Assembly (NCBI GenBank): GCA_046483495.1
Contig: JAWODC010000018.1
Coordinates: 1 to 64,000, forward strand
Length of the DNA stretch: 64,000 nt
Direction of reading: 5' to 3'
From: Desulfobacterales bacterium
GTDB taxonomy: Bacteria; Desulfobacterota; Desulfobacteria; Desulfobacterales; UBA5616
In this document: piece by piece, positions 1 through 56,536 of the stretch
Layout: each line of letters starts with the position of its first letter
Numbering within the stretch: position 1 is the stretch's first letter
Translations under genes and position numbers: made by a program
Notes under the pieces: model-generated
Database searches by the model: none
Told to the model about the DNA's origin: nothing
Seen by the model: the letters and a program-made list of their open reading frames with translations, nothing else

Positions 1-1491
1 ATCATAGGCGATGCGAATGCTGACATAATTTGATGTGTCTGATATGATGTTGTCAGAGACGAGATACCCGTCATAAACCTCTCTTCTCCCGGGTCCGCGT
101 CTGACTGGGTAGACCCATATGTTCCCTTCTATGTCTTCAATCGAAGTAGGCTCAAGGTTCCGCCTTCTAACCAATTGCTGAAACTCGGTAACACTGAGAA
201 CATAATCGGCGTCGAATGTACTTCGCCCCGGACAGGCAACCGCACGAAGGTTGGCTGCGTTCTCCGGTGGAACGCCGGTGCTCCGAAGCTGCTCAGGCGA
301 CATGTACAGGATTGCGGTGTCCCCCAAACGGACCCGTTCGAAAACCTCGCCGCGTTCGGGCAGACTTTGCAGTCCGGAAATCGCCTCGGCAAACAGCGTG
401 CCGGTCTTTCCGACCAGGTTGTCCACCTGATCCTTCATCAGGGCCTGCAACGGCGAGATCACGATTGTCAATACCCCGCGCCGCCGATACCGCACAAGGG
501 CCGGCAGCTGGTAGCAAAGCGATTTGCCGCCGCCGGTCGGCAGAATCCCGAGAACCGGGCGGTTTGCCATGCAGGCACGAACGATCGCCTGCTGCAGACT
601 TTCGCCGTCCTGGGTTTTCGGCTCATTCCGGAACGATGGATATCCGAAGAGGCGCTCCAACTGCCGCTCGGGATTGTGGTTTTCTGCGCAAAAGGAGCAG
701 TCCGCATTTTTGCAGGGTTTCTCTCTCAATGAAGCAATGATCCTGGGAATTTCCGGAAACCGATGGCGCACCCATGGCGGCAGCACCGAGTTGCCGCCGG
801 CAACCTGAAGCCAGGCCATGCAGTACGCCGCCGATGGGCGCCGGACCGGGTCGGCCAGCACTTCGGGCATTACCTGCCCGGCTGCATGTTCGCAGAGACG
901 ACCGGATGTTTCTGCGATAAAGCAGTCCAAAGCGTCTTCCAAAGAGTGAATGGGATCGGGAGTAAGCCTGGAAAACACCGCCGAAAGCCCTTTTCCGGAA
1001 AACCCGTTAAAGCTGCTGTGGTGAAAACAGAAATGATAAAACGCCATCAATCCCGCTTGTTTTTCAGCCAAAGTCTGGAAGCTTTGCCATTGGTCGCTGA
1101 AAACGGAGGCGGCAAGCTGCGCGTCCTGCACCGGACTGTTGACGGACGATCGAACCAGTTTGTAGTCTTTTACCAAACGGTGGTAAGGGTTTTCCGGAAA
1201 CGCCAGCGGCGAGAGGTAGAGCGTATCGATTACCGGCTTTTGAAGCAGTTCGAGCCCCGGGGCGGAGATCTTCAGCAGTGGAAAATCGTGCCCCAGCAGG
1301 TTGTGCCCGAGAATATAACCGGCGGGCCGGGCAAAGCGATCCAGCTCCTCGAGGATCGATCTTGCTCCGGCTCTGTCTTTTTTTTCGAACACCCGGCCGT
1401 TGAAAACGGCCCCGACATGCCTGATTTTGCCGGTTTTCGTGGCTTCGATGTCGAGCAGCAGCGTCTGTGCCGGAATTTTGAAAGGGTTCAT
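1..1491 (-). CDS. Exonuclease-domain RecQ-family helicase, N-terminal part; frame open to the window edge; diverges from RecQ after SPEQLRS
   Basis: Manual minus-strand translation (absent from the ORF track because no stop occurs in the window): LLLDIEA...GHNLLGHDFP...IDTLYLSPL (DEDD exonuclease-like), Walker A LPTGGGKSLCYQLPA, motif Ia VISPLQALMKDQV, then ILYMSPEQLRS. Confidence 0.8.
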   Translation of the reverse strand, partial: MNPFKIPAQTLLLDIEATKTGKIRHVGAVFNGRVFEKKDRAGARSILEELDRFARPAGYILGHNLLGHDFPLLKISAPGLELLQKPVIDTLYLSPLAFPENPYHRLVKDYKLVRSSVNSPVQDAQLAASVFSDQWQSFQTLAEKQAGLMAFYHFCFHHSSFNGFSGKGLSAVFSRLTPDPIHSLEDALDCFIAETSGRLCEHAAGQVMPEVLADPVRRPSAAYCMAWLQVAGGNSVLPPWVRHRFPEIPRIIASLREKPCKNADCSFCAENHNPERQLERLFGYPSFRNEPKTQDGESLQQAIVRACMANRPVLGILPTGGGKSLCYQLPALVRYRRRGVLTIVISPLQALMKDQVDNLVGKTGTLFAEAISGLQSLPERGEVFERVRLGDTAILYMSPEQLRSTGVPPENAANLRAVACPGRSTFDADYVLSVTEFQQLVRRRNLEPTSIEDIEGNIWVYPVRRGPGRREVYDGYLVSDNIISDTSNYVSIRIAYD

Positions 1492-2478: not shown

Positions 2479-2558
2479 GGGACGTTCGTGCAGAAAGTGA
2501 TGAGAACCGGATTTATAAGGCATGACTTAATTTGTGAATGTTCTGCACGAACGTCCCC
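2479..2558 (+). mobile_element. Non-autonomous RAYT-derived element (REPIN/MITE-like), copy A, ~80 bp
   Basis: GGGACGTTCGTGCAGAA...TTCTGCACGAACGTCCC ends match those flanking the RAYT at 36594-37670; the interior resembles the RAYT 3' end. Confidence 0.85.
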
Positions 2559-2567
2559 AACTAGAAA

Positions 2568-3452
2568 TCATGCGGTCAGCCTGACCCTGGGGCCTGATGA
2601 CTTTTTGCGTTCGGGTTTGCCGTTTCCTGATATCCGCCGGCTCGGCCTGTCCGCGGTTGCCGGCATTTTCAGAATATCCCCCAGCATCAGTTCATCGGGG
2701 TCCTGAAAGGCCGGCACACCGATCGTAATCTCGTCTTGCGGTATATTCAGCTGAAGTGTGCCGTGCACATAATCGGGCCAGGTAAAAATCGTAGACCAGT
2801 TCGAATCAGTCTCCTCCGGTAGGATGGAGTGATGGATCCCGTGCATGCGCGGGGTTGCGATTATTTTGACCAGTTTTCGCTCGAACGCGATCGGAAGTTC
2901 GATGTTCGAGTGGTGAAAAATGATCTCCAGAAGGGTTATGAGCTGCCAGAGGGAAAGCGGGAAAGGAGCAATGCCCAGAAAGAACACCTGGGCGCCTCTC
3001 CAGGAAGCCGAAAGCAGCATTTCTGCGGGATGAAAGCGCAGCGCCGTCGAAGCGTCCAAATCAAGATCCACATGATGCACCTGATGCAGCCGCCACAGGA
3101 GAGGAACCCGATGGGTCAAGTAATGCCAGATAAAAAGGGTATAGTCCAACAGCACCAACGAAAGAAAGACATATAGCCATGCCGGCATTTGTATCCTTCT
3201 GAGCAAACCGAAATTGCGCCGTTGGCCCTCTTTCATGAGATAAGTGGTCAACGGCTTTTCCGAGGCCCGGATGGTGGCCGCAGTGGTGACCGACATGGCA
3301 AGATTTCTGACATTGCGGCGGATCTTGCTTTGCCGTTTTTTGCGGAGCGGCCGCTTGTTTTCAAAATACAGAATCGTCAGGGCTGTGCCGACGATCAAAA
3401 GTCCGCTCAACCATTTCGGGGGTTCATGGTTTAGTGCTTTGGGGTCTCTCAC
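2568..3452 (-). CDS. Sterol desaturase / fatty acid hydroxylase family membrane protein
   Basis: His boxes HYLTH, HQVHH, FHHSN, HGIHH; RFHPAE. Confidence 0.88.
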   Translation of the reverse strand: MRDPKALNHEPPKWLSGLLIVGTALTILYFENKRPLRKKRQSKIRRNVRNLAMSVTTAATIRASEKPLTTYLMKEGQRRNFGLLRRIQMPAWLYVFLSLVLLDYTLFIWHYLTHRVPLLWRLHQVHHVDLDLDASTALRFHPAEMLLSASWRGAQVFFLGIAPFPLSLWQLITLLEIIFHHSNIELPIAFERKLVKIIATPRMHGIHHSILPEETDSNWSTIFTWPDYVHGTLQLNIPQDEITIGVPAFQDPDELMLGDILKMPATADRPSRRISGNGKPERKKSSGPRVRLTA

Positions 3453-16552: not shown

Positions 16553-16617
16553 TACAAGATACTAGAAATGACTATTTTGGTTCAAGACCAAGGCGAAGCG
16601 GCATAATAAACCGCAGG
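16553..16617 (-). repeat. Half copy of the 47291-47436 palindromic element family
   Basis: Reverse complement CCTGCGGTTTATTATGCCGCTTCGCCTTGGTCTTGAACCAAAATAGTCATTTCTAGTATCTTGTA aligns with 47368-47436. Confidence 0.7.
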
Positions 16618-29313: not shown

Positions 29314-29434
29314 GGGACGTTCGTGCAGAATGTGATTTAAAATGAAAGTCGTAAATGAAAGTAAAAAAATATGCCGGGATTATTCAGATTAGATGTTGCC
29401 TTTGGATTTATGAACGTTCTGCACGAACGTCCCC
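29314..29434 (+). mobile_element. RAYT-derived element copy B (~120 bp)
   Basis: Both 17-bp ends present. Colinear with the RAYT leader and first ~9 codons (ATGCCGGGATTATTCAGATTAGATG vs ATGCCAAGGTTATCCAGATTAGATG), joined directly to the RAYT 3' end. Confidence 0.9.
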
Positions 29435-29656
29435 AATAAAATTCTTGATCTGTTGAGCAAAGATCTGTAAATAATGGTAAAAGGCTTATCTTCGGCCATG
29501 ATTAAACCATGGCACTACCAAAGGAACGATTCTCGTAGCGTTTAAAAAGTTGTCCGTACCTTTCATTCTACATCTGTAATTACTTCGAGAATTCTGTCTT
29601 TATTAAACTTTACGTATGTTCTTCAGTAATTTTCATTGATCGAAGAGGATCCAAAC

Positions 29657-30697
29657 ATGAAAACCAAACCTCAATCTCCCAACTTTGCAGCAACCATGAT
29701 GGGTGCCGTTCCATATCGGGATAAGGAAAGGGCCCTGGATGCCATCCTGAAAAATTTTCCTGAAGCCCCTTGCCTGCCGATAATGACCCGCGGGATCAGG
29801 TGGGTGCTGGAAGGAATGCCGTGCATGGTTATCAATCGGGAAAAACGTGAAATTCTGTTAGACGCTTCTCCTGGAAAAGAAAATGAAATACTTGAATTTT
29901 ACGATCGTTTCGAATCCGGTGATCTCGATTATTTTGCTACAACTCCCGAAACCGCCCCCTTTTTCTACGCCATGATCGAGCGCCTTAAAACCCATCGGCC
30001 TTCCGAATTGAAGTGGGTGGTTTTACACACGGTCGGGCCCCTGCTTTTGGGTGACATGTTGAAGCAGCCGGATGGCACGCCGTCGATCCACCACGAAACC
30101 CTTCGGGACATATTGATAAAATGCATGAATATGAAGACACGGTGGCTTGAAAAGAAATTGAAGGAGGAAATTCCTGAAATCGAAGTGGTTGCTGATCTGC
30201 CGGAAACAACCCTGGTCAATTTTACCTCAGCGGGGGGAACAGGAAACCGGCAGGAGATTATCGAGGCTGTCGACGAAGGCTTTTCGAAATTGACATGCCT
30301 TACGTGGATTCATTGCTGCGCCAACATCGACTGGTCGCTTTTGACCGATACGAAGACGGATATAATCAATTTCGACGCCTATCAACATTCCGATAAGGTC
30401 GTCCTTTATGCAAAAGATTTCAAAAATTTCATCGACAGGGGCGGAATGATCGGCTGGGGAATTGTACCGGTGGTGCCGGAATTATTGGAAAAAGAAACCG
30501 TCCAGAGTCTGGTTGAACGCCTTGAACAGGCGATAAACAGCTTCGCTCAAAAAGGTATCGACGAAAAAAAACTGGCTTCCGCTTCATGGATTCTGCCATG
30601 CTGTGATGCTGTGATGTTAACGGCTGATCAAACCGATGTCGTTTTTCAGATGACGAAGCAGATATCTGAAGCTTTGCGCAAAACGTACGGATTTTAA
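29657..30697 (+). CDS. Cobalamin-independent methionine synthase (MetE C-terminal/UROD)-like protein
   Basis: GPLLLG, IHCCANIDW, INFDAY, GWGIVP, ILPCC. Confidence 0.65.
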   Translation: MKTKPQSPNFAATMMGAVPYRDKERALDAILKNFPEAPCLPIMTRGIRWVLEGMPCMVINREKREILLDASPGKENEILEFYDRFESGDLDYFATTPETAPFFYAMIERLKTHRPSELKWVVLHTVGPLLLGDMLKQPDGTPSIHHETLRDILIKCMNMKTRWLEKKLKEEIPEIEVVADLPETTLVNFTSAGGTGNRQEIIEAVDEGFSKLTCLTWIHCCANIDWSLLTDTKTDIINFDAYQHSDKVVLYAKDFKNFIDRGGMIGWGIVPVVPELLEKETVQSLVERLEQAINSFAQKGIDEKKLASASWILPCCDAVMLTADQTDVVFQMTKQISEALRKTYGF

Positions 30698-30750
30698 GAA
30701 TCCCTCGGTACCCTGAGCCAAAAAGATCCGCACCCCACTATACCTCACTA

Positions 30751-30916
30751 GGGACGTTCGTGCAGAATGTGATTTAAAATTAAAGAGGTTTATGCTTGCG
30801 TTTTAATGCCGTATGTTTTCCATTTATTTTCTTTCTGTAGGCAGGGGGCTTAGAAGAAGGAAAAAATGTATCTAAACTATATACGCTTAAATTTATGAAT
30901 GTTCTGCACGAACGCC
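30751..30916 (+). mobile_element. RAYT-derived element copy C (~165 bp); right end degenerate and overlapping the 3' end of CDS 30893-32347
   Basis: Left end intact; 30785-30825 matches RAYT 36798-36838 (HUH-coding segment); right end TTCTGCACGAACGCC. Confidence 0.85.
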
Positions 30917-32347
30917 TGAGATGAATGGATGTTCAGCGAGACTCGTGGCCTTATCTTTCATTCCGTTTTGTTCATAGAATATTACAGCCGATTGGATGGC
31001 TTCGAAATCCTGTTCATCTCTGATAACCGGATAAAGATCCCTTTCAAGTGCGCTGAGGCCTCGATCGAAATGGAACAGCGCCTGCTTTCTCCTGCCCATG
31101 AGAAGGCAGGTTTGGCCCATGAGAAAATCCGTGGGAAAGCAACCGTTTTTCTTGCGGCAGATCTCGTAGTAGAGGAGAGCTTCCCGGTAACGGCCCTTCT
31201 TGCGCATGGCATGGGCCAGCTCTGTCTGCCTGTAGTTCATGGCGGGGTTACGTTCATATGCCTTTTCAAAGAAGCGAAGAGCAGCGTCTATTTTGTCTGC
31301 ATCGAGAAGAAGCTGTCCCAGATCGGCCATGCCGGGGCAGAGTCCCGGGTCCCTGCGGCACAGGTCCAGGGAAAGGCCAAAAGCTTGGTCTGTTTCTCCG
31401 CGTGCCAGATGGGCAAAGGCTTTGTAAAGCAGAAGGGTGGACTCCCGGGGAAATTCGGAAAGACCCGAACGGCAGCGCTGCAGAAGAAGGTCAGCCCCCC
31501 CATTCACGTAAAGAAAGTCGGCATGCTCTCTCAGTTTCCATAATCGAGGCAAAGGTTCGTGCAGCAGGTTAGGAAAGCTGAGAATCTCGCGACTCTGTTC
31601 AGCAACCCAGCGCCTGACCGGCTCCAGAAATCCCCCGTCAATTGAACGTGCAATGATGACATCTCGAACGAGGTAATTACCGGCGAACAGATCCAGAGAG
31701 AAGGAATGCCAGGCGGAGAAAAGGCTTTTGTCTGTGGCGGCCGCAAGGGGTGGAAAGAAGTCCGCATCGATACTGAGCAGGACCGGTCCGGTGATGCCGG
31801 GGAGTTCTTCCGAAGGGCATAGGATAAGCGAAGCCCCGTGAACGTTTCCCGTAAATGTTCTCCCCTTTAGTTCGAATGTTGCAATATCCTCCTCCGGGAA
31901 GGATGCATGACGCAGCAGCGAGCGAAGGGCCGGGACCGGATCGGCGACCGAAAAGCAGGGGAATGGAATGATCCAGTAAACCTTTTTGATTATCCCCAGC
32001 CGGAAGGCGGCATAGAGGAAGTTGCCCGGGTGGTAGAACCCCTTATCCCCCGCTGAATCAGACGCCTTCAGGGCCTTCAGATCCCTTTCTTTGAAAATCG
32101 TCTGCAGACGACTGATCCGGTCCTCTGGAATGCGGCGGAGATCGTCATGGGCGTCGATATGGATTAACGTACAATCTGAATATTCTTTTTCCACCCAGTA
32201 AACCAATGCCTGGCTGTGATTCTCCACCACATAAGGCTTTGAGATCGGATCCCGGCCGAGGATGCAGGATCCATCCCCGCCGGCTGCCACGAATCCCGGG
32301 TATACCAGAAGGATGCAGAGCGCGAGTATGCAACGGCGGAAACACAT
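30893..32347 (-). CDS. Exported UPF0489 (peptide arginase-like) domain protein with C-terminal TPRs
   Basis: Signal peptide; VVENHSQAL..W, LIHIDAHDDL, GNFLYAA, VYWI, LLSIDADFF; TPR-like helices in the C-terminal half. Confidence 0.7.
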   Translation of the reverse strand: MCFRRCILALCILLVYPGFVAAGGDGSCILGRDPISKPYVVENHSQALVYWVEKEYSDCTLIHIDAHDDLRRIPEDRISRLQTIFKERDLKALKASDSAGDKGFYHPGNFLYAAFRLGIIKKVYWIIPFPCFSVADPVPALRSLLRHASFPEEDIATFELKGRTFTGNVHGASLILCPSEELPGITGPVLLSIDADFFPPLAAATDKSLFSAWHSFSLDLFAGNYLVRDVIIARSIDGGFLEPVRRWVAEQSREILSFPNLLHEPLPRLWKLREHADFLYVNGGADLLLQRCRSGLSEFPRESTLLLYKAFAHLARGETDQAFGLSLDLCRRDPGLCPGMADLGQLLLDADKIDAALRFFEKAYERNPAMNYRQTELAHAMRKKGRYREALLYYEICRKKNGCFPTDFLMGQTCLLMGRRKQALFHFDRGLSALERDLYPVIRDEQDFEAIQSAVIFYEQNGMKDKATSLAEHPFISGVRAEHS

Positions 32348-32372
32348 CGTTCACACCCTCAGGCAATCGCGG

Positions 32373-32705
32373 TCACTGGAGTCCGGCCGGGTGCATCTGC
32401 TGCTTCGGACTTGCCGGACGCATCTGCTGGTTTGGAGCCGCCGGCCTGATCTGCTGGTTGGGAATGGCCGGACGCATCTGCTGTTTTGGGTCTGCCGGAC
32501 GCATTTTCTGTAAAGGATCGGCGGGACGCATTTTCTGTAAAGGATCTGCAGGACGTATCTTCTGTAGCGGATCGGCGGGACGCATCTGCTGATTGGGGGA
32601 AGCGGGTTTCATATTCTGCTCCTCATCCTGGGCCATGCCCCGGCCGGACAAAACCAGTCCCATACCGAGCAGCACCAATGCAAGCGTTTTCAATGTTTTT
32701 TTCAT
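32373..32705 (-). CDS. Exported tandem-repeat protein, 9-aa units (M/I)RPAxPxQ(Q/K)
   Basis: GGAGGT RBS; signal peptide MKKTLKTLALVLLGMGLVLSGRGMA; 8 full units plus 1 partial. Confidence 0.8.
   Translation of the reverse strand: MKKTLKTLALVLLGMGLVLSGRGMAQDEEQNMKPASPNQQMRPADPLQKIRPADPLQKMRPADPLQKMRPADPKQQMRPAIPNQQIRPAAPNQQMRPASPKQQMHPAGLQ
32376..32612 (-). repeat. 27-bp coding tandem repeat, ~8.8 units
   Basis: Repeated GGACGCAT(C/T)T(G/T)CTG... with 27-nt period on the + strand. Confidence 0.9.
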
Positions 32706-32819
32706 CGTGTACACCTCCAAGATTACCTTTATCATTACCATGTCTGGAAATTCGAACAGATCAGGTTGGTTTGTCTACAAGGTTAACATCGCGGACCGAC
32801 GGGTTTGACAGTCGGCCGG

Positions 32820-32912
32820 TCACTCTGAAAGACCCCGGAGGTGCCGGAACCCGGAGAAAGAACCCTCGCCAACCGATAATGGTGAGAACTTGCTTTTCGC
32901 GACCGTCCACAT
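32820..32912 (-). CDS. Putative 30-aa small ORF / leader peptide
   Basis: GGGAGGT RBS just upstream of ATG; MWTVAKSKFSPLSVGEGSFSGFRHLRGLSE*; followed by a short hairpin. Confidence 0.3.
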   Translation of the reverse strand: MWTVAKSKFSPLSVGEGSFSGFRHLRGLSE

Positions 32913-33038
32913 AGCCACCTCCCGAATTGTGATTTTGCCGGATTGTGTGTCCAATATGGAGTAACGGCCCGATTCGGCCGAGAAAACGTGGCGGAAAACG
33001 TACCAGCCGTCCGCACCGAATGTCAACCCCAAAAAACA

Positions 33039-33263
33039 GGGACGTTCGTGCACAAAGTGATTTACATGAATTTAAAAAGTGCTTACCGGTATTGGTTTGC
33101 GAAGGGACGATGGGGTTTAGGGTTGAGTTTTAATGCAGAATTATTTCCATCTGCTGTGTAAAAAATCTGCCCTTGGCTTCCACTATGTGCAGGCTTCGAA
33201 GAAGGAAAAACCGGATTTGAATAATATGCTTTTGGATTTATGAACGTTCTGCACGAACGTCCC
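33039..33263 (+). mobile_element. RAYT-derived element copy D (~225 bp)
   Basis: Both ends present; 33081-33192 aligns to RAYT 36766-36883; from 33202 aligns to the RAYT 3' end (AAGGAAAAACCGGA...). Confidence 0.92.
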
Positions 33264-33748
33264 TATAGAGAATAGCTTCGGCCGTTCAGCCGGAATACGG
33301 TTTTCCCATCGTCCTCTCCGATGCAATCCGCCAGTTTTAAAAGCGCCCGATCCGTGAATTTGATCCATTCCGAGTCAATCCGCATAAACAGGTTGTCGTC
33401 TTTTGTAAAGAGGTTTTCAGGGCGCAGCGGCACCCGATTTTTAGTGTTCATGACAAGAATTATATGATCCCCCCGGATAACGTCGAAAACAAACAGGGGT
33501 GTATCCACGTAAGGGAAATATACCTTTTCGCGGATATTGTCGTATTCCCGGGTGACATGGTATCCATCGCGGTCTTTACGAATCGAAGCGTTGAAATGGG
33601 CGACAATTTTGGGCTTTTGAAACGGCCCGTAACGGTTGTGCCAGCGGCCGTTTTCGTCCATCCAGAATACCGCTTTTTCTCTGGGGACAACGATTTCTTT
33701 CATCGATGTGTTGCCGTTTTCAGATAAGCTCCTTTTGGGGTTTTCCAT
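33263..33748 (-). CDS. Conserved hypothetical protein (DUF1285-like)
   Basis: FWMDENGRWHN...EKVYFPYVDTPLFV; family guess from recall only. Confidence 0.6.
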   Translation of the reverse strand: MENPKRSLSENGNTSMKEIVVPREKAVFWMDENGRWHNRYGPFQKPKIVAHFNASIRKDRDGYHVTREYDNIREKVYFPYVDTPLFVFDVIRGDHIILVMNTKNRVPLRPENLFTKDDNLFMRIDSEWIKFTDRALLKLADCIGEDDGKTVFRLNGRSYSL

Positions 33749-33969
33749 TCAATTTTCACCCAAACCCTTTTAATACGTTGATCCTGAATAATGATATGAG
33801 AATCCAATGTGTTCAATATATCTTGCGCTTTCCAAAATTTCAATATGCTTGACTTTCCTATACAGCCGGCTCGTAGAACAGACCTGAATCGGTGCACGCT
33901 TTGAATTTCGTTGGAATTGTTTTGTCGTTAATCATTTGGTATAGTTTAAGCGTTAATGTTGGATCTAAT

Positions 33970-35610
33970 ATGAGTGACGAGCAGAAGAGGACCTCCCAAC
34001 CGATGACAGCCGAACGGAATGACAGCTCGACTTCCACAAACCGATATTTCAATATCCATCCGCCGGTATTCTGGCCTGCAGCCGTTCTGCTGATTATTTT
34101 CATTGCGGTCACGCTGGTGGTCGGTGATCCGATGAAAACCGTATTCGATAGTCTTCAGAATACGATTTCGGATAATTTCGGATGGTTTATCCTGATAGCG
34201 GTTAATTTCTATCTCTTTTTTATGTTGTATCTGGCGTTCAGCAAGTACGGCAATATCCGGCTCGGTGGAATAAATGCCGTTCCCGATTTCAGCCGGCTGT
34301 CCTGGTTTGCCATGCTTTTTTCCGCCGGAATGGGAATCGGCATTCTTTTCTGGAGCGTGGCCGAACCCCTCTACCATTTTGTGGAGCCCGTCAAGGGCAG
34401 TGGGCAGACGGTTGCTGCGGCCACAGAGGCGATGCGGACAACCTTTCTTCACTGGGGCCTGCATCCCTGGGCGATTTATGCGCTGGTTGGAATGGCGCTG
34501 GCCTTTTTTGCTTTCAACCGACAGCTCCCTCTGGCCATCCGTTCCATATTCCATCCTCTGCTGGGAGAACGGGTGTATGGGATATGGGGTGATGTCATCG
34601 ATGTGCTGGCGGTCTTGTCTACCCTGTTCGGCCTTTCCACTTCCCTGGGCTTCGGCGTCCAGCAGATCAGTGCGGGTCTGCACCACATTTCAGGCCTTTC
34701 GGACACCATCGACCTTCAGATCGGCCTGATGGCCGGCATCACCGGTATTGCGGCCTTGTCGGTTTTTTCAGGGCTCGACCAGGGAGTGAAACGGCTTTCG
34801 GAACTGAACCTGAATCTTGCGGCCCTGCTGCTGATATTTGTCCTGCTGCTCGGCCCCACCATTTTCATTTTGGATTCTTTCGTCCAGAACACAGGGGCCT
34901 ACCTGGATGGTTTTTTCGAAATGAGTTTTTGGGCCGAGAGCTATGAACAGACCCGGTGGCAGAATACGTGGACCCTGTTCTACTGGTCATGGTGGGTGGC
35001 CTGGTCGCCGTTCGTGGGAATGTTCATCGCCCGCATTTCCAGGGGGAGGACCATTCGGGAATTCGTGCTGAGCGTCCTGATCATACCGACTTTGCTGACG
35101 TTTCTCTGGATCACCGCTTTCGGGGGATCGGCCCTGTTTTTCGAACTCAACGCCATCGGCGATATCGCGGCGGCGGCACAGGAAAATGTGGCCATTTCGA
35201 TTTACGCTCTGCTGGAAAATCTTCCTCTTCCGATCATCACCCATATAGCCGCCATTATCCTGGTGATCAGCTTTTTTGTGACTTCAGCCGATTCCGGCTC
35301 GCTTGTTGTGGACACCTTTACTTCCGGCGGGGAACTGACCTCCCCGGTGTCTCAGCGGATATTCTGGGCTTTCATGATCGGCGCGGTGGCGGCCGTTTTA
35401 CTTTTGGGCGGTGGCCTGAGTGCCCTGCAGACGGCATCGATCACCTCGGGGCTGCCTTTTGCCATGATAATGGTTCTCATGGCATTCAGCCTGAAAAAAG
35501 GGCTCAAGCAGGAGTATGAAGCTGATCTCATTCGCAAAAAAGCTTTCGAGAGGGAGTCTTATGAAGAGCTGGTCCGTCGGATGCTGGAAACCAAAAATGG
35601 GTCGGACTGA
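33970..35610 (+). CDS. BCCT-family (betaine/choline/carnitine) transporter
   Basis: SWFAMLFSAGMGIG, HWGLHPWAIY, WTLFYWSWWVAWSPFVGMFIARISRGRT. Confidence 0.95.
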   Translation: MSDEQKRTSQPMTAERNDSSTSTNRYFNIHPPVFWPAAVLLIIFIAVTLVVGDPMKTVFDSLQNTISDNFGWFILIAVNFYLFFMLYLAFSKYGNIRLGGINAVPDFSRLSWFAMLFSAGMGIGILFWSVAEPLYHFVEPVKGSGQTVAAATEAMRTTFLHWGLHPWAIYALVGMALAFFAFNRQLPLAIRSIFHPLLGERVYGIWGDVIDVLAVLSTLFGLSTSLGFGVQQISAGLHHISGLSDTIDLQIGLMAGITGIAALSVFSGLDQGVKRLSELNLNLAALLLIFVLLLGPTIFILDSFVQNTGAYLDGFFEMSFWAESYEQTRWQNTWTLFYWSWWVAWSPFVGMFIARISRGRTIREFVLSVLIIPTLLTFLWITAFGGSALFFELNAIGDIAAAAQENVAISIYALLENLPLPIITHIAAIILVISFFVTSADSGSLVVDTFTSGGELTSPVSQRIFWAFMIGAVAAVLLLGGGLSALQTASITSGLPFAMIMVLMAFSLKKGLKQEYEADLIRKKAFERESYEELVRRMLETKNGSD

Positions 35611-35640
35611 TCGCGATAAATGCATTTGCAGGAGAGTCTC

Positions 35641-36561
35641 ATGAAACGTATCCATAATATGCTGGTCTGCCTGGATTTGACCGATATCGATCCATTCCTG
35701 ATCAAATACGCTGCTTTCATGGCCGGTATCTTCGAGGCCGAAAGGGTTCTTTTCATTCATGCCATCCAGGCATATGACCTGCCTGACAAACGTAAAAAAT
35801 CGTTTGAAGAAGTGAAGGCATCGCTTGACCGGAAGATCCGGGAAGAACTAGACCAGCTTGTCGATCTCAGGTTCAGGAGGGACTATGGCATCGAGGTGAT
35901 CACCCGTATAGAGGAGGAAGATGCCGCCGAGGGTGTTATAAGCTTTGTAGAAGAGGACGGGATCGATCTGGTTATGATCGGCCAGAAACCCGGCGCAGAC
36001 CGCAAGGGGCTGTATGGAAAGAAAATCGCCGCACACACCGCCTCCGACATTCTGTTTGTTCCCGAATATACCGAGCCGGAAATCATCACCCGGGCACTGT
36101 GCGCCGTCGACTTTTCCGAAGTCTCGGAGGCGGCGTTCGAAATCGCCGTCCGGCTGTTTAAAAAACACCGGGTACATGTTCTTTGCTATGCCGTTCAGGA
36201 TCCGTCTACCGCGTATTTCCCGGCCACCACTCGAAAGAGCGCCGGTAAAAAGCAGAGTGGTTTGGAGCAGGGCTACCAAAAATTCCTGGAAAAGTGGGAT
36301 CTGAAGGCAGAGGATTTTCCCTGTCGAATCGAAGCTGCAGACAGCCTGCTCAGCGAGCCGGAAAGGCTCTATGGCTTTGCGGAAGAAAAAGAGGTGCAAC
36401 TCGTCATCATCGGTGCCAAGGGCGAAACGGAAACGGAAACTTCCCTGCTGGGCAACATCACCGAGACGCTGCGTCGGATGCAGACCCATATCCCGATCAT
36501 GATCGTCAAGGGCGGCAGAAAAAAGGGCTTTTTAAACTACTTCGGTTCCGGCGACCCGTAG
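35641..36561 (+). CDS. Tandem universal stress protein
   Basis: Two Usp domains: MLVCLDL...DLVMIG; LCAVDFS...IIGAKG...LLGNITE. Confidence 0.85.
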   Translation: MKRIHNMLVCLDLTDIDPFLIKYAAFMAGIFEAERVLFIHAIQAYDLPDKRKKSFEEVKASLDRKIREELDQLVDLRFRRDYGIEVITRIEEEDAAEGVISFVEEDGIDLVMIGQKPGADRKGLYGKKIAAHTASDILFVPEYTEPEIITRALCAVDFSEVSEAAFEIAVRLFKKHRVHVLCYAVQDPSTAYFPATTRKSAGKKQSGLEQGYQKFLEKWDLKAEDFPCRIEAADSLLSEPERLYGFAEEKEVQLVIIGAKGETETETSLLGNITETLRRMQTHIPIMIVKGGRKKGFLNYFGSGDP

Positions 36562-36593
36562 GTACAATCTCCGGATCCCGAGAAACAACAGAG

Positions 36594-37670
36594 GGGACGT
36601 TCGTGCTGAAAGTGCTTGACAATCAAAGTCATAAATGCAGGTAAAAACCTATGCCAAGGTTATCCAGATTAGATGCTCATGGGATATTGCACCACGTTAT
36701 GGGGCGAGGGATCGAGCGAAGAAAAATTTTCTTGAGCGACAGGGACCGCAACGATTTTATCGAACGCTTATCGGCATTGGTTTACGAAGGTGCGATGGAG
36801 GTTTATGCCTGGGTTTTAATGCCGAATCATTTCCATCTGCTGTGTAAAACAAAAAATCTGCCCTTGGCTTCCAGTATGCGCAGCCTCCTTACGGGATATG
36901 TCGTCAATTTCAATAAGCGCCATAATAGAAACGGCCATTTATTTCAAAACCGTTATAAATCCATTGTCTGTCAGGAGGATGTTTATCTTAAAGAGCTGGT
37001 TCGATATATTCACCTCAATCCGGTGCGCGCCGGGCTGGTGGAAGATTTCAAGGCGCTGAACCGCAATCCATGGTCCGGGCACTCGGTGCTTTCCGGCGCA
37101 GTGAAACGAGATTGGCAGAACACCGGATATGTGCTTTCATGTTTCGGCGGTTCGGATGATTCGACGAAAAATTATTTGCGATACGTCGAACAAGGAATGG
37201 ACCAGGGCCGGAGACCGGAATTGGTCGGCGGCGGATTGATACGGAGCATGGGTGGATGGTCGGAGGTTCTTTCCAGCAGGAGGCGCGGCCGGAAGCAGGC
37301 AGCTGACCAGCGGATACTCGGCGACGGCGCGTTTGTCGAGCATATCATTTCGGGTCTTGACGACCTTGTGAAAAAGAACTTGAGAGTTTCCAGACAAAGG
37401 ATGGATATGAACGGACTTGCCGGGAAAGTCGCTGAAAAATACGGCATCTCCATCACCGAACTCCGCTCGGGAGGTCGGCGGCAAACTGTGGTTCGGGCAC
37501 GACAAGCCATGTCATGGCTTTGCGTCAGGGAACTCGGATATTCGGGGGCTGATGTAGCGAGGTATCTCGGAGTTACGAATTCCTGCGTCACGCGAATACT
37601 AGCGAATAAGGAAAAACCGGATATGGACGATATATCCTTGGATTTGTGAACGTTCTGCACGAACGTCCCC
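36594..37670 (+). mobile_element. Full-length RAYT element with 17-bp inverted, hairpin-forming ends
   Basis: GGGACGTTCGTGCTGAA at 36594 and TTCTGCACGAACGTCCC at 37653-37669 enclose only the transposase ORF; no target-site duplication evident. Confidence 0.9.
36651..37649 (+). CDS. REP-associated tyrosine transposase (RAYT, HUH Y1) with a C-terminal HTH (DnaA_C-like)
   Basis: HHVMGRG, YAWVLMPNHFHLL (HUH), GHLFQNRYKS, LVRYIHLNPVRAG (catalytic Tyr), PWSGH; C-terminal ELGYSGADVARYLG. Confidence 0.92.
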   Translation: MPRLSRLDAHGILHHVMGRGIERRKIFLSDRDRNDFIERLSALVYEGAMEVYAWVLMPNHFHLLCKTKNLPLASSMRSLLTGYVVNFNKRHNRNGHLFQNRYKSIVCQEDVYLKELVRYIHLNPVRAGLVEDFKALNRNPWSGHSVLSGAVKRDWQNTGYVLSCFGGSDDSTKNYLRYVEQGMDQGRRPELVGGGLIRSMGGWSEVLSSRRRGRKQAADQRILGDGAFVEHIISGLDDLVKKNLRVSRQRMDMNGLAGKVAEKYGISITELRSGGRRQTVVRARQAMSWLCVRELGYSGADVARYLGVTNSCVTRILANKEKPDMDDISLDL

Positions 37671-47290: not shown

Positions 47291-47436
47291 TACAAGCTAT
47301 CTCAAAATAATCTTTTGCCCCGATATCTTCGTTGGAACCGAATGTTACGTCCTCAACATACATGAGTATGCCTGCGGCTTAACATTCGGTTCCGCCTTGA
47401 TCTTGAACCAAAATATTTATTTTGAGATAGCTTGTA
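47291..47436. mobile_element. ~146-bp palindromic MITE-like element
   Basis: Perfect 20-bp IR TACAAGCTATCTCAAAATAA / TTATTTTGAGATAGCTTGTA and perfect 14-bp inner IR GGAACCGAATGTTA / TAACATTCGGTTCC. Confidence 0.8.
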
Positions 47437-54005: not shown

Positions 54006-54114
54006 GCCTCATGCAACGGCGAAATCAAAAGGGGGTTGAGATGAGCGCATTGCTATGTCCGTGCCCGTATAGGCAGGCCTCATGCAACGGCGAAATCAAA
54101 AGGGGGTTGAGATG
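54006..54114 (+). repeat. Perfect 38-bp direct repeat x2 (54006-54043, 54077-54114), 33-bp spacer, duplicating RBS plus ATG
   Basis: GCCTCATGCAACGGCGAAATCAAAAGGGGGTTGAGATG occurs twice. Confidence 0.9.
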
Positions 54115-55012: not shown

Positions 55013-56536
55013 ATGATGAAACACCACACCATTTACGCAAAAACCAAACCGGAGGCGCCGGCTGTCATCATGGCCGAAAATGAAGAAATCGTTTCGTGGA
55101 AAGAATTCGACCGGCGGATAAACCGGCTGGCCCGTTATTTCAGGGATATCGGCCTCAAAGAAAAAGACCGCATGGCGGTTCTTATGGAAAATAATGCCCG
55201 CTATCTTGAAATCATTACCGCCGCCTTGGATGCCGGATTGATCTTTACGCCGATCAGTACCCATTTGAAGCAAAGTGAAACAGAATACATCATCAACAAT
55301 TCCGGTGCAAAACTGTTGATCACCTCCCAGAGATATGCCGACCTTGCCGGCAGGATATCGGCCGGAACCCCGGATCTCACCCATCGTCTCATGCTGGGTA
55401 AGGCCATTCCCGGATACGATGACTATGAGGGTGTCGTTTCAAAGTATGAGGACATTCCCATTGATTACGCCTTTGCCGGAATGCCCATGTTTTATTCATC
55501 CGGCACCACCGGGACGCCGAAAGGCGTTGTCTGGAATGTGGACGATTTTCCAGTGGGTGATCTCGACCCTTCACTGGAGGGTGCATTTGCGTTTTTTGGT
55601 ATCGATGAGAACGTCACTTATCTTTCCACCCAGCCGCTGTACCACTCGGCACCCTGCGCATATGCCTCCAGCATCAGCCAGGTGGGCGGAACGATTATTT
55701 TAATGGAAAAATTCGAAGCCGAAAAAGCGTTGTCTTTAATCGACACATTCCGGGTCACCCATTCCCAGTGGGTGCCTACCATGTTCATTCGGCTGCTGAA
55801 GCTGCCCGAAAACGTTCGAGACGTATACGACGTTTCAAGCCTTAAAATGGCAATCCATGCCGCTGCCCCCTGCCCGATTGAGGTCAAGGAAAAAATGATC
55901 GACTGGTGGGGACCCATTCTGCTGGAATACTGGGGTGGAACAGAAACGTCGATGGTGACGATCATTACTTCCCAGGAATGGCTCGAGCATAAAGGATCCG
56001 TCGGCAAGGGGCTATTGGCGAAACTTCACATTTTAGACGACGAAGGAAAAGAACTCCCGCCCGGGAAGCCGGGGGTTATCTACATGGAGTCGGGAAGGCC
56101 TTTCTCCTATCACAAGGAGCCCGAAAAAACATCCTCCAGCAGGAACGAGCAGGGGTGGACCAGCATCGGGGACATCGGGTACCTGGATGAAGAAGGATAT
56201 CTGTATCTGACGGACCGAAAATCCTTCATGATCATATCCGGTGGTGTCAACATTTATCCCCAGGAAACAGAAGATGTCCTTATCATGCATGAAAAGGTGG
56301 CGGATGTCGCCGTCATCGGAATGCCCGATGAGGATTTCGGAGAGACGGTAAAGGCGGTTGTCCAGCCGGTGAATGCATCGGATGCCGGACCTGAGCTTGA
56401 AAAAGAGCTTATCGAATTCTGCAGAAGCAGGATTTCGCATATCAAATGCCCTAAAAGTGTCGACTTTATGGAAGACTTTCCAAGAACCCCTACGGGAAAG
56501 GTGTTGAAAAGGGTAATAAAGGAAAAGTATAAATAG
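55013..56536 (+). CDS. Acyl-CoA synthetase (AMP-forming)
   Basis: YSSGTTGTPKGV, PLYHSAP, YWGGTE, GDIGYLD, DRKSFMIISGGVNIYP, PRTPTGKV. Confidence 0.93.
   Translation: MMKHHTIYAKTKPEAPAVIMAENEEIVSWKEFDRRINRLARYFRDIGLKEKDRMAVLMENNARYLEIITAALDAGLIFTPISTHLKQSETEYIINNSGAKLLITSQRYADLAGRISAGTPDLTHRLMLGKAIPGYDDYEGVVSKYEDIPIDYAFAGMPMFYSSGTTGTPKGVVWNVDDFPVGDLDPSLEGAFAFFGIDENVTYLSTQPLYHSAPCAYASSISQVGGTIILMEKFEAEKALSLIDTFRVTHSQWVPTMFIRLLKLPENVRDVYDVSSLKMAIHAAAPCPIEVKEKMIDWWGPILLEYWGGTETSMVTIITSQEWLEHKGSVGKGLLAKLHILDDEGKELPPGKPGVIYMESGRPFSYHKEPEKTSSSRNEQGWTSIGDIGYLDEEGYLYLTDRKSFMIISGGVNIYPQETEDVLIMHEKVADVAVIGMPDEDFGETVKAVVQPVNASDAGPELEKELIEFCRSRISHIKCPKSVDFMEDFPRTPTGKVLKRVIKEKYK

Follow-up and report, generated by a model that had tools for sequence, protein, structure and literature searches.

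The DNA analysed here, referred to as the window, is a stretch of 64,000 nucleotides from contig JAWODC010000018.1 of a Desulfobacterales bacterium (assembly GCA_046483495.1). It carries an intact element with one gene resembling that of a tyrosine transposase associated with REPs (RAYT; REP, repetitive extragenic palindrome), together with four shorter, gene-less copies. The locus is probably a TIRtron with local gene-less derivatives, which would descend from a deleted sibling of the present element and would have been copied by nicking and strand displacement. The window represents an old, decayed example of a named class and not a new kind of system. What genome comparison adds is the mobility of the unit, the formation of gene-less copies and the traces of probable cut sites. 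Reviews regard the largest group of RAYTs as a domesticated gene present in single copy, while these comparisons show movement as a unit.

The open reading frame (ORF) of the intact element is undamaged, encodes 332 amino acids (aa) and is the only gene of the ~1.08-kb unit. Its product matches PF01797 (Y1_Tnp) with an E-value of 1.4e-11 and, over residues 259-308, PF08299 (Bac_DnaA_C) with 31.6 bits against a cut-off of 31.5. The catalytic motifs of the HUH class are found at H60-F61-H62 and at Y119, which lies within a Y---NP motif (Y119-I-H-L-N-P). The best fold match of a predicted structure is Escherichia coli TnpA_REP (4er8; E 1.3e-5), and DnaA domain IV is also among the fold matches; the model is of low confidence (pLDDT 55) and served for fold matching alone. 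As the first-pass annotation proposed, the gene is bounded by 17-bp inverted ends: in the core ends, at 36594-36610 and 37653-37669, 16 of the 17 positions match in inverted orientation, and the true limits probably lie ~4-6 bases further out on either side. An A-to-T change at position 14 of the left end is private to the intact copy and absent from all 13 related elements compared. Contigs from public runs cross the right end of the intact element and the copy at 30751 with zero differences, and so support the assembly in parts; contigs from the one RNA run overlap parts of the gene, an overlap that cannot demonstrate transcription. An Rfam scan gave zero matches, and a promoter scan found no promoter-like site within the left end at its threshold.

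By its sequence, the enzyme is a TIRYT, the transposase of a TIRtron, and belongs to subclass 2.1.2, or RAYT group 1, and not to the REPIN-type groups 2 and 3 (REPIN, a REP doublet forming a hairpin). The names TIRYT and TIRtron were given to RAYT-like genes within long inverted repeats, which have single and dimeric end families (Di Nocera 2013, PMC3733652). TnpA-Y1 subclass 2.1 corresponds to TIRYT, its 2.1.2 subgroup has a Bac_DnaA_C tail, and Y---NP is the class-2 motif (Quentin 2018, 10.1101/279083). The window element shares with this class the Y---NP HUH enzyme, the DnaA-like helix-turn-helix (HTH), inverted ends starting GGGG[AT][CG] and small end families. The first six bases of its ends fit the consensus GGGGWSAS and the last two do not; that consensus is reported for some or most terminal inverted repeats (TIRs), not for all (PMC3733652; 10.1101/279083). 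An IS200/IS605 TnpA, for which a core-only protein, Y---Q and subterminal hairpins are expected, is excluded by the length of 332 aa, the Y---NP motif and the inverted ends.

The four shorter copies (at 2479, 29314, 30751 and 33039; 79, 120, 168 and 225 bp, respectively) were correctly placed by the first-pass annotation, and all lie in one orientation. Its claim that their interiors are fragments of the RAYT gene holds for three of them: those at 29314, 30751 and 33039 align to the leader, ORF or 3' end with scores that 0 of 500 shuffles matched, in each case. The 36-nt interior of the 2479 copy does not follow, since its local alignment was equalled by 148 of 500 shuffles and its gapped chain by 13 of 500, and a comparison with 14 full-length elements gave zero matches. 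This copy has a twin of 92% identity at G000:C53:32106-32184 (G000 denotes the genome of the window and G139 and G004 other genomes; C-numbers are contigs and L-numbers element loci), and a 13-nt left and a 7-nt right flank are common to both. In the 33039 copy, the reading frame and the HUH codons are destroyed. The coordinates of all features are collected in Table 1.

Table 1. Features of the intact element and of its short copies in the window.
Feature	Position	Strand	Description
Left terminal inverted repeat	36594..36610	+	17 bp
Right terminal inverted repeat	37650..37669	-	hairpin 37650-37666, 6-bp stem, 5-nt loop
Intact TIRtron	36594..37669	+	1076 bp across core inverted ends
TIRYT gene	36651..37649	+	332-aa HUH/Y1 transposase, DnaA-domain-IV-like HTH at C-terminus
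225-bp deletion derivative	33039..33263	+	element positions ~1-24, 173-289, 1010-1076
168-bp deletion derivative	30751..30918	+	element positions 1-34, 205-243, 1011-1076
120-bp deletion derivative	29314..29433	+	element positions 1-82, 1043-1076
79-bp two-ended copy	2479..2557	+	interior unalignable to element

The shared changes among the short copies bear on their descent. C22A, relative to 13 related full elements, is common to all three clustered copies, and those at 29314 and 30751 additionally share A18T, G25T, C27A and the same 5-nt outer flank. The copies therefore descend from a sibling or a partly deleted intermediate, and not stepwise from the intact copy, which lacks these derived bases; the graded series of the intact copy's own derivatives that had been proposed does not stand. 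The 250-bp flanks of the five window units are mutually unrelated. In the history that we favour, a sibling of the present element would have suffered an internal deletion, transposase acting in trans would have made nearby copies of the deleted intermediate, all in one orientation, and the resulting copies would then have lost more of their interior, each independently. If instead each short copy were the in-place ruin of a separate full-length insertion, only the full element would have hopped locally and the gene-less copies would never have moved. The shared derived bases could also stem from a full-length sibling, many deletions in relatives are one-offs, and breakpoints mostly differ, with just three pairs sharing an interior among 29 two-ended units. 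However, the copies at 30751 and 33039 retain the same ORF block, 205-243, and rejoin at the same position, 1010-1011; the 79-bp copy has its twin on another contig; and the genome G139 contains four near-identical gene-less copies. Ruin in place is, for these reasons, an unlikely account of the cluster.

The ends of the short copies are better kept than their interiors, with 4 of 96 family-conserved sites mutated in the former and 21 of 154 in the latter (p=0.017), a comparison biased by the fact that the copies were located through their ends. The conservation that the first-pass annotation ascribed to the ends is thus borne out overall and fails at the right end of the 30751 copy, which is damaged at three of its last four bases. 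Selection by the host for a hairpin is another possible cause of this pattern, and is conceivable because the copies at 2479 and 30751 lie between convergent genes. The damaged right end of 30751 encodes the last codons and the stop of a convergent TPR gene (30893-32347; overlap 30893-30918). The right end of the 33039 copy likewise provides the final codons or the stop of a convergent DUF1285-like gene at 33263-33748.

Mobility was assessed across the family. The exact 17-mer is present in 50 of 401 genomes of the order, in 27 of 174 genera, and the reversed control in 0; the records with relatives that could be named are mostly Desulfobacterota. An end pair was detected by the rule of our script, which still missed the arrays at L220 and L222, in 47 of 80 related loci, and spans 1068-1082 bp in 42 of these 47. 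In a set of 117 distinct element loci, the pair L021 and L343 shares 99.45% identity across 1090 bp; the flanks of the two are unrelated, and homology stops 6 nt outside each end. Pairs with differing flanks also occur within single genomes (L263/L276, 96%; L032/L308, 94%; L253/L254, 91%). Because near-identical full elements occur in unrelated flanks, the unit of end, gene and end is mobile as a family, in agreement with the earlier claim that the whole unit was mobile. Relatives on plasmids are confined to 14 distant records of at most 41% identity, and none was found on phages.

Gene-less copies recur among these relatives. Interiors matching full elements are found in 16 of the 29 two-ended units (45-900 bp), which together with the three alignable interiors in the window upholds the proposal that short copies arise by internal deletion. 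G139 holds four gene-less copies of 140 bp that are identical or 98-99% identical to the query copy and whose right flanks differ. Terminal inverted repeats are a typical feature of DDE elements, and in principle the ends could be those of a DDE transposon, one that took up the Y1 gene or that mobilises the short copies. Against this, none of the end sites listed for the whole genome encloses or adjoins a DDE gene, so that the DDE transposase with the same inverted repeats on which the earlier proposal would have foundered was not encountered; across relatives of 42-80% identity the ends accompany the Y1 gene with constant spacing; and there is no constant target duplication, either in a first set of 7 units or in a later one of 59. 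Ownership of the ends by a DDE transposon is hence extremely improbable. Target duplication at TA or elsewhere was rejected as a candidate, with TA on both sides in 5 of 59 units and a lowest p of ~0.01 among 27 tests.

Traces of how copies arise are found at the ends themselves. End-anchored tandem duplications occur at 31 of 276 distinct ends, against a mean of 0.02 and a maximum of 1 in a null of shuffled flanks; three of the duplicated ends belong to the genome of the window, on C53 and C88. The duplications begin outside the end, 6-10 nt away in 23 of 31, and stop inside it, after base 6 in 11 cases and after base 10 in five. They bracket where the enzyme would probably cut, once 6-10 nt outside the end and a second time past its base 6 or 10, a finding that bears on how REP-type repeats amplify. 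At L188, six head-to-tail truncated left-end copies of 79-302 nt are 83-97% identical to the adjacent element, and the copy nearest the element is the most similar. At L191, a full copy and ~195 nt of its right flank are duplicated against a left end. In G139, five copies share a fixed right end and carry a methylase-gene fragment that ends at five different points, 405-577 nt leftward; adjacent deletions of a larger unit are an alternative explanation of this pattern. Wherever a partial copy lies within 6 kb of an element, it has that element's orientation (14 of 14 copies, at 10 of 47 loci; one is an internal repeat, and the loci are non-independent). The outer positions -2, -3 and -5 are complementary between the two ends of an element beyond chance.

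Duplications, arrays and captures fit nicking, displacement synthesis primed by a 3'-OH, a second cut and strand transfer, from which we infer the following mechanism, to which we give about even odds. The enzyme would bind each end via its HTH, the hairpin or both, nick one strand a few bases outside the end and stay bound to the 5' end of the element. Primed by the freed 3'-OH, displacement synthesis would run into the element until strand transfer at a second cut ended the reaction. End-anchored tandem duplications, short or long, would result when the reaction closes early, a copy of the unit when it closes at the far end, and copies with adjacent DNA when it reads through; no fixed target duplication would be produced. 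The same model of nicking, extension and rejoining has been put forward for the amplification of bacterial interspersed mosaic elements (BIMEs; PMC3333891, Fig. 7B). Among the duplications, 22 of 31 stop at, or one base past, a G^T step. By analogy with PMC8266576, a guide-pairing rule in which a GGAC foot predicts G^T cuts might apply, but a cut at a fixed distance would explain these stops equally well. Duplications in other end families stop elsewhere than at G^T, and none with a different guide was sampled in number; covariation among positions of the tails carried no information on the rule.

Read-through also underlies a different account of the locus, in which short copies and neighbouring host genes travelled as one piece and were attached to an end already in place; 29314-37669 would then be an array of gene modules built by the element. 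Relatives do contain read-through copies, and the units of the window all share one orientation, the short ones lying upstream of the intact copy. For three of the genes that intervene or flank, homologues in genomes of the same family stand next to other genes and are without ends, and on C53 a HipA/HTH pair is bounded by a left and a right end. Yet conservation of gene order between these genomes is poor in any case (of 11 neighbour pairs, 7 are broken, as read by eye), the intervening genes lie on either strand and no additional copy of them is linked to an end, and the captured stretches in relatives are gene fragments of 200-580 nt and not intact genes of 1.3-3.3 kb. Such a cassette array is quite improbable at this locus.

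The first-pass annotation took the gene for an RAYT and suggested that a REPIN origin might have been captured, that is, that a domesticating RAYT had been caught generating REPINs. Several features are shared with such a process: a single intact gene under purifying selection, ends better conserved than interiors, two-ended short copies that fold into long hairpins (z -6.6 and -8.1) as REPINs do, and a proposed origin of REPINs in the fusion of flanking palindromes (10.1101/2021.07.10.451892). The link to REPINs is, however, limited to groups 2 and 3 in the accessible text of these studies (PMC5581495; 10.1101/2021.07.10.451892), and the protein scores 70.7 bits against NF047646, the NCBIfam model of REP-associated tyrosine transposases, below its cut-off of 80. 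The hairpin feet at the window element are AGAG and ATGG, and the GTAG foot is missing from the 14 feet that are most frequent at 276 ends. The repeats are few and clustered: the end 16-mers occur 12 and 10 times genome-wide, and the 15 end sites with at most one mismatch all lie on C94, C53 and C88, which are 3 of 94 contigs and 3.8% of the genome. Moreover, derivatives form repeatedly, those of a second TIRtron included, while REPIN systems are argued to arise rarely and MITEs (miniature transposable elements with inverted repeats) repeatedly (10.1101/2021.07.10.451892). Birth of a REPIN system at this locus is accordingly very improbable, and membership of the REPIN-linked groups is largely refuted. 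Derivation from a TIRtron in the manner of MITEs is an analogue of the proposed REPIN origin and not its capture.

Nor is the hairpin at each end, as first described, a general feature. That of the right end folds at -4.9 to -5.8 kcal/mol as DNA (z -1.4 to -1.7), whereas that of the left end is marginal (-2.5, z +0.7). Over the ends of the family, the inner arm of the hairpin pairs at 98%, 75% and 48% of ends at three unconstrained positions. The hairpin is a trait of the subfamily, more distant families retaining the GGGAC start without it. One short copy, L371 (G139:C64, near 2943-3011), is reduced to a single hairpin end and resembles a REP singlet, the sequence that separated the left inner arm from the right end having been lost.

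Comparison with known systems places the TIRtron reading in context. RAYT group 1 is described as the largest and most IS-like (6.3% duplicates, 1.2% plasmid members), with ~12 flanking 16-mer copies against averages of 57 and 140 for groups 2 and 3 (Bertels 2017, PMC5581495); a review counts it among single-copy genes unable to duplicate (10.1101/2021.07.10.451892). With groups 2 and 3 and their REPs, REPINs and BIMEs (PMC3116915, PMC3333891, PMC8266576, as far as their accessible text goes), the window element shares the catalytic fold and two-ended copies with long hairpins. Unlike those groups, it lacks the GTAG foot and has an extra HTH domain, its gene travels with its ends, and its 10-12 end copies are clustered in place of dozens to hundreds that are dispersed. 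The immobility of the gene at a conserved locus that marks groups 2 and 3 does not apply either: a same-genus genome (96% complete) has no match to the element, and relatives lie in unrelated flanks. Beside prochlorosin genes, a group-1 TnpA_REP of the same subclass occurs as full-length and many truncated copies among host genes; the authors withdrew a causal claim, and inverted ends or two-ended derivatives are not described in the accessible text (10.1101/2020.03.09.984088). The accessible text of the TIRtron papers (PMC3733652, 10.1101/279083, PMC5581495) is likewise without movement of the unit, transposase-derived dimer interiors, end duplications or captured flanks, all of which are seen here or in relatives. 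Our literature search, whose coverage is incomplete, turned up no study on the mobility of TIRtrons, on their derivatives or on duplications at their ends; figures or supplements may list such dimers.

The short copies resemble bacterial MITEs in being non-coding, 50-400 bp long and derived from a parent by deletion, in their terminal inverted repeats, and in that some have multiplied. They differ in their HUH parent, in the lack of a constant target duplication and in that most copies are one-offs. Near-identical copies, a trait of MITEs, are represented by one pair of 92% identity here and by the four in G139, while the three clustered copies all differ. Rolling-circle elements of the IS91/ISCR type also use HUH chemistry, and leave copies in which one end is fixed while the captured neighbouring DNA varies. 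The copies in G139 and at L191 with captured adjacent DNA are similar; here, by contrast, the enzyme is a single-tyrosine RAYT-like protein, the inverted ends are symmetric and duplications start from either end.

Several observations weigh against the reading of the locus as a TIRtron with mobile derivatives. The genome contains one intact copy of the window element, as the genome-wide end search and full-copy count proposed earlier established, and its left end is mutated. Its gene is under strong purifying selection and has diverged from four relatives about as much as recA and pyrG, with a lower synonymous divergence only among those four relatives themselves; this pattern is also expected of a domesticated gene, and recent horizontal transfer into this genome is not supported. 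At interior sites, the window copies are 14-23% divergent from the intact copy, implying that the deletion and copying events are old. The empty sites in relatives that the first-pass annotation anticipated did not emerge: a flank-pair search for 52 units gave no clean empty allele, the five nearest genomes are too diverged to show such sites, and orthologue searches in two genera and one family gave only L331, a paralogue without the element, in intergenic DNA too diverged to align. Intact paralogues in G139 yield the left junction alone, 3-4 nt outside the end. Contigs of four runs revealed neither an excision joint nor a circle junction, an absence that is uninformative at a depth of ~3-6 in the run holding the organism. 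G139 carries 8% contamination, the ends and loci are non-independent samples, and the five window units contribute none of the mechanistic traces, whose sources are relatives and the contigs C53 and C88.

A broader claim can be formulated, that group-1 'RAYTs' are undomesticated, two-ended, rolling-circle-like transposons that start from either end, often stop early or read through, and rejoin at resident ends, building co-oriented arrays whose modules are bounded by ends and contain host genes, with 29314-37669 as one of them. The family would then offer a living model for the step from a Y1 element to REPs and REPINs. We regard this generalisation as unlikely.

The second TIRtron of the genome, at G000:C18:10512-11601, has a Y1 gene, whose protein is 45% identical to the first, and its own 26-bp inverted ends. 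Its short derivatives are found at C18:121115-121314, C25:3027-3223, C89:5881-6400 and C91:4645-5184. The units on C89 and C91 (520-540 bp) consist of repeat-rich non-transposase DNA flanked by 27-bp ends. At C53:24830-27977, a left and a right end of the window family bound 3.1 kb that may form a composite unit and contain a DUF5996 fragment, a HipA-like kinase with an HTH gene, and a nucleotidyltransferase gene. A 264-bp piece of a helicase-like gene is 98.5% identical between window positions 270-533 and G000:C53:36199-36462, near contig ends, and the 79-bp short copy lies directly downstream of this gene on both contigs. An adjoining position of C53 and C94 is unsupported, as the common 264-bp repeat does not overlap the contig ends. 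In one genus (L188, L189, L191, L192 and L331), the element recurs beside a gene putatively labelled CHASE2/PP2C-like from reading its ORF, and the neighbouring small genes of this region vary between copies.

The commonest repeat of the genome is a 16-mer with 58 copies that lies in a G/C-rich palindrome, often followed by 7-nt tandem runs; it is spread over 20 contigs (e.g. C38, C39 and C86) and unrelated to either TIRtron. Between the short copies, window positions 29657-30697 encode a 346-aa protein without a Pfam or NCBIfam match, and the window orthologue of its direct neighbour in G004 lies 24 kb off, at 55016-56533. At 32386-32628, a gene for a small and putatively exported protein contains eight 27-bp tandem repeats, which encode a Pro/Gln-rich repeat of 9 residues. 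Elsewhere, the window contains a 52-bp dispersed inverted pair (16566-16617 and 47371-47422) and, at 54006-54114, a perfect 38-bp direct repeat with copies 71 bp apart.

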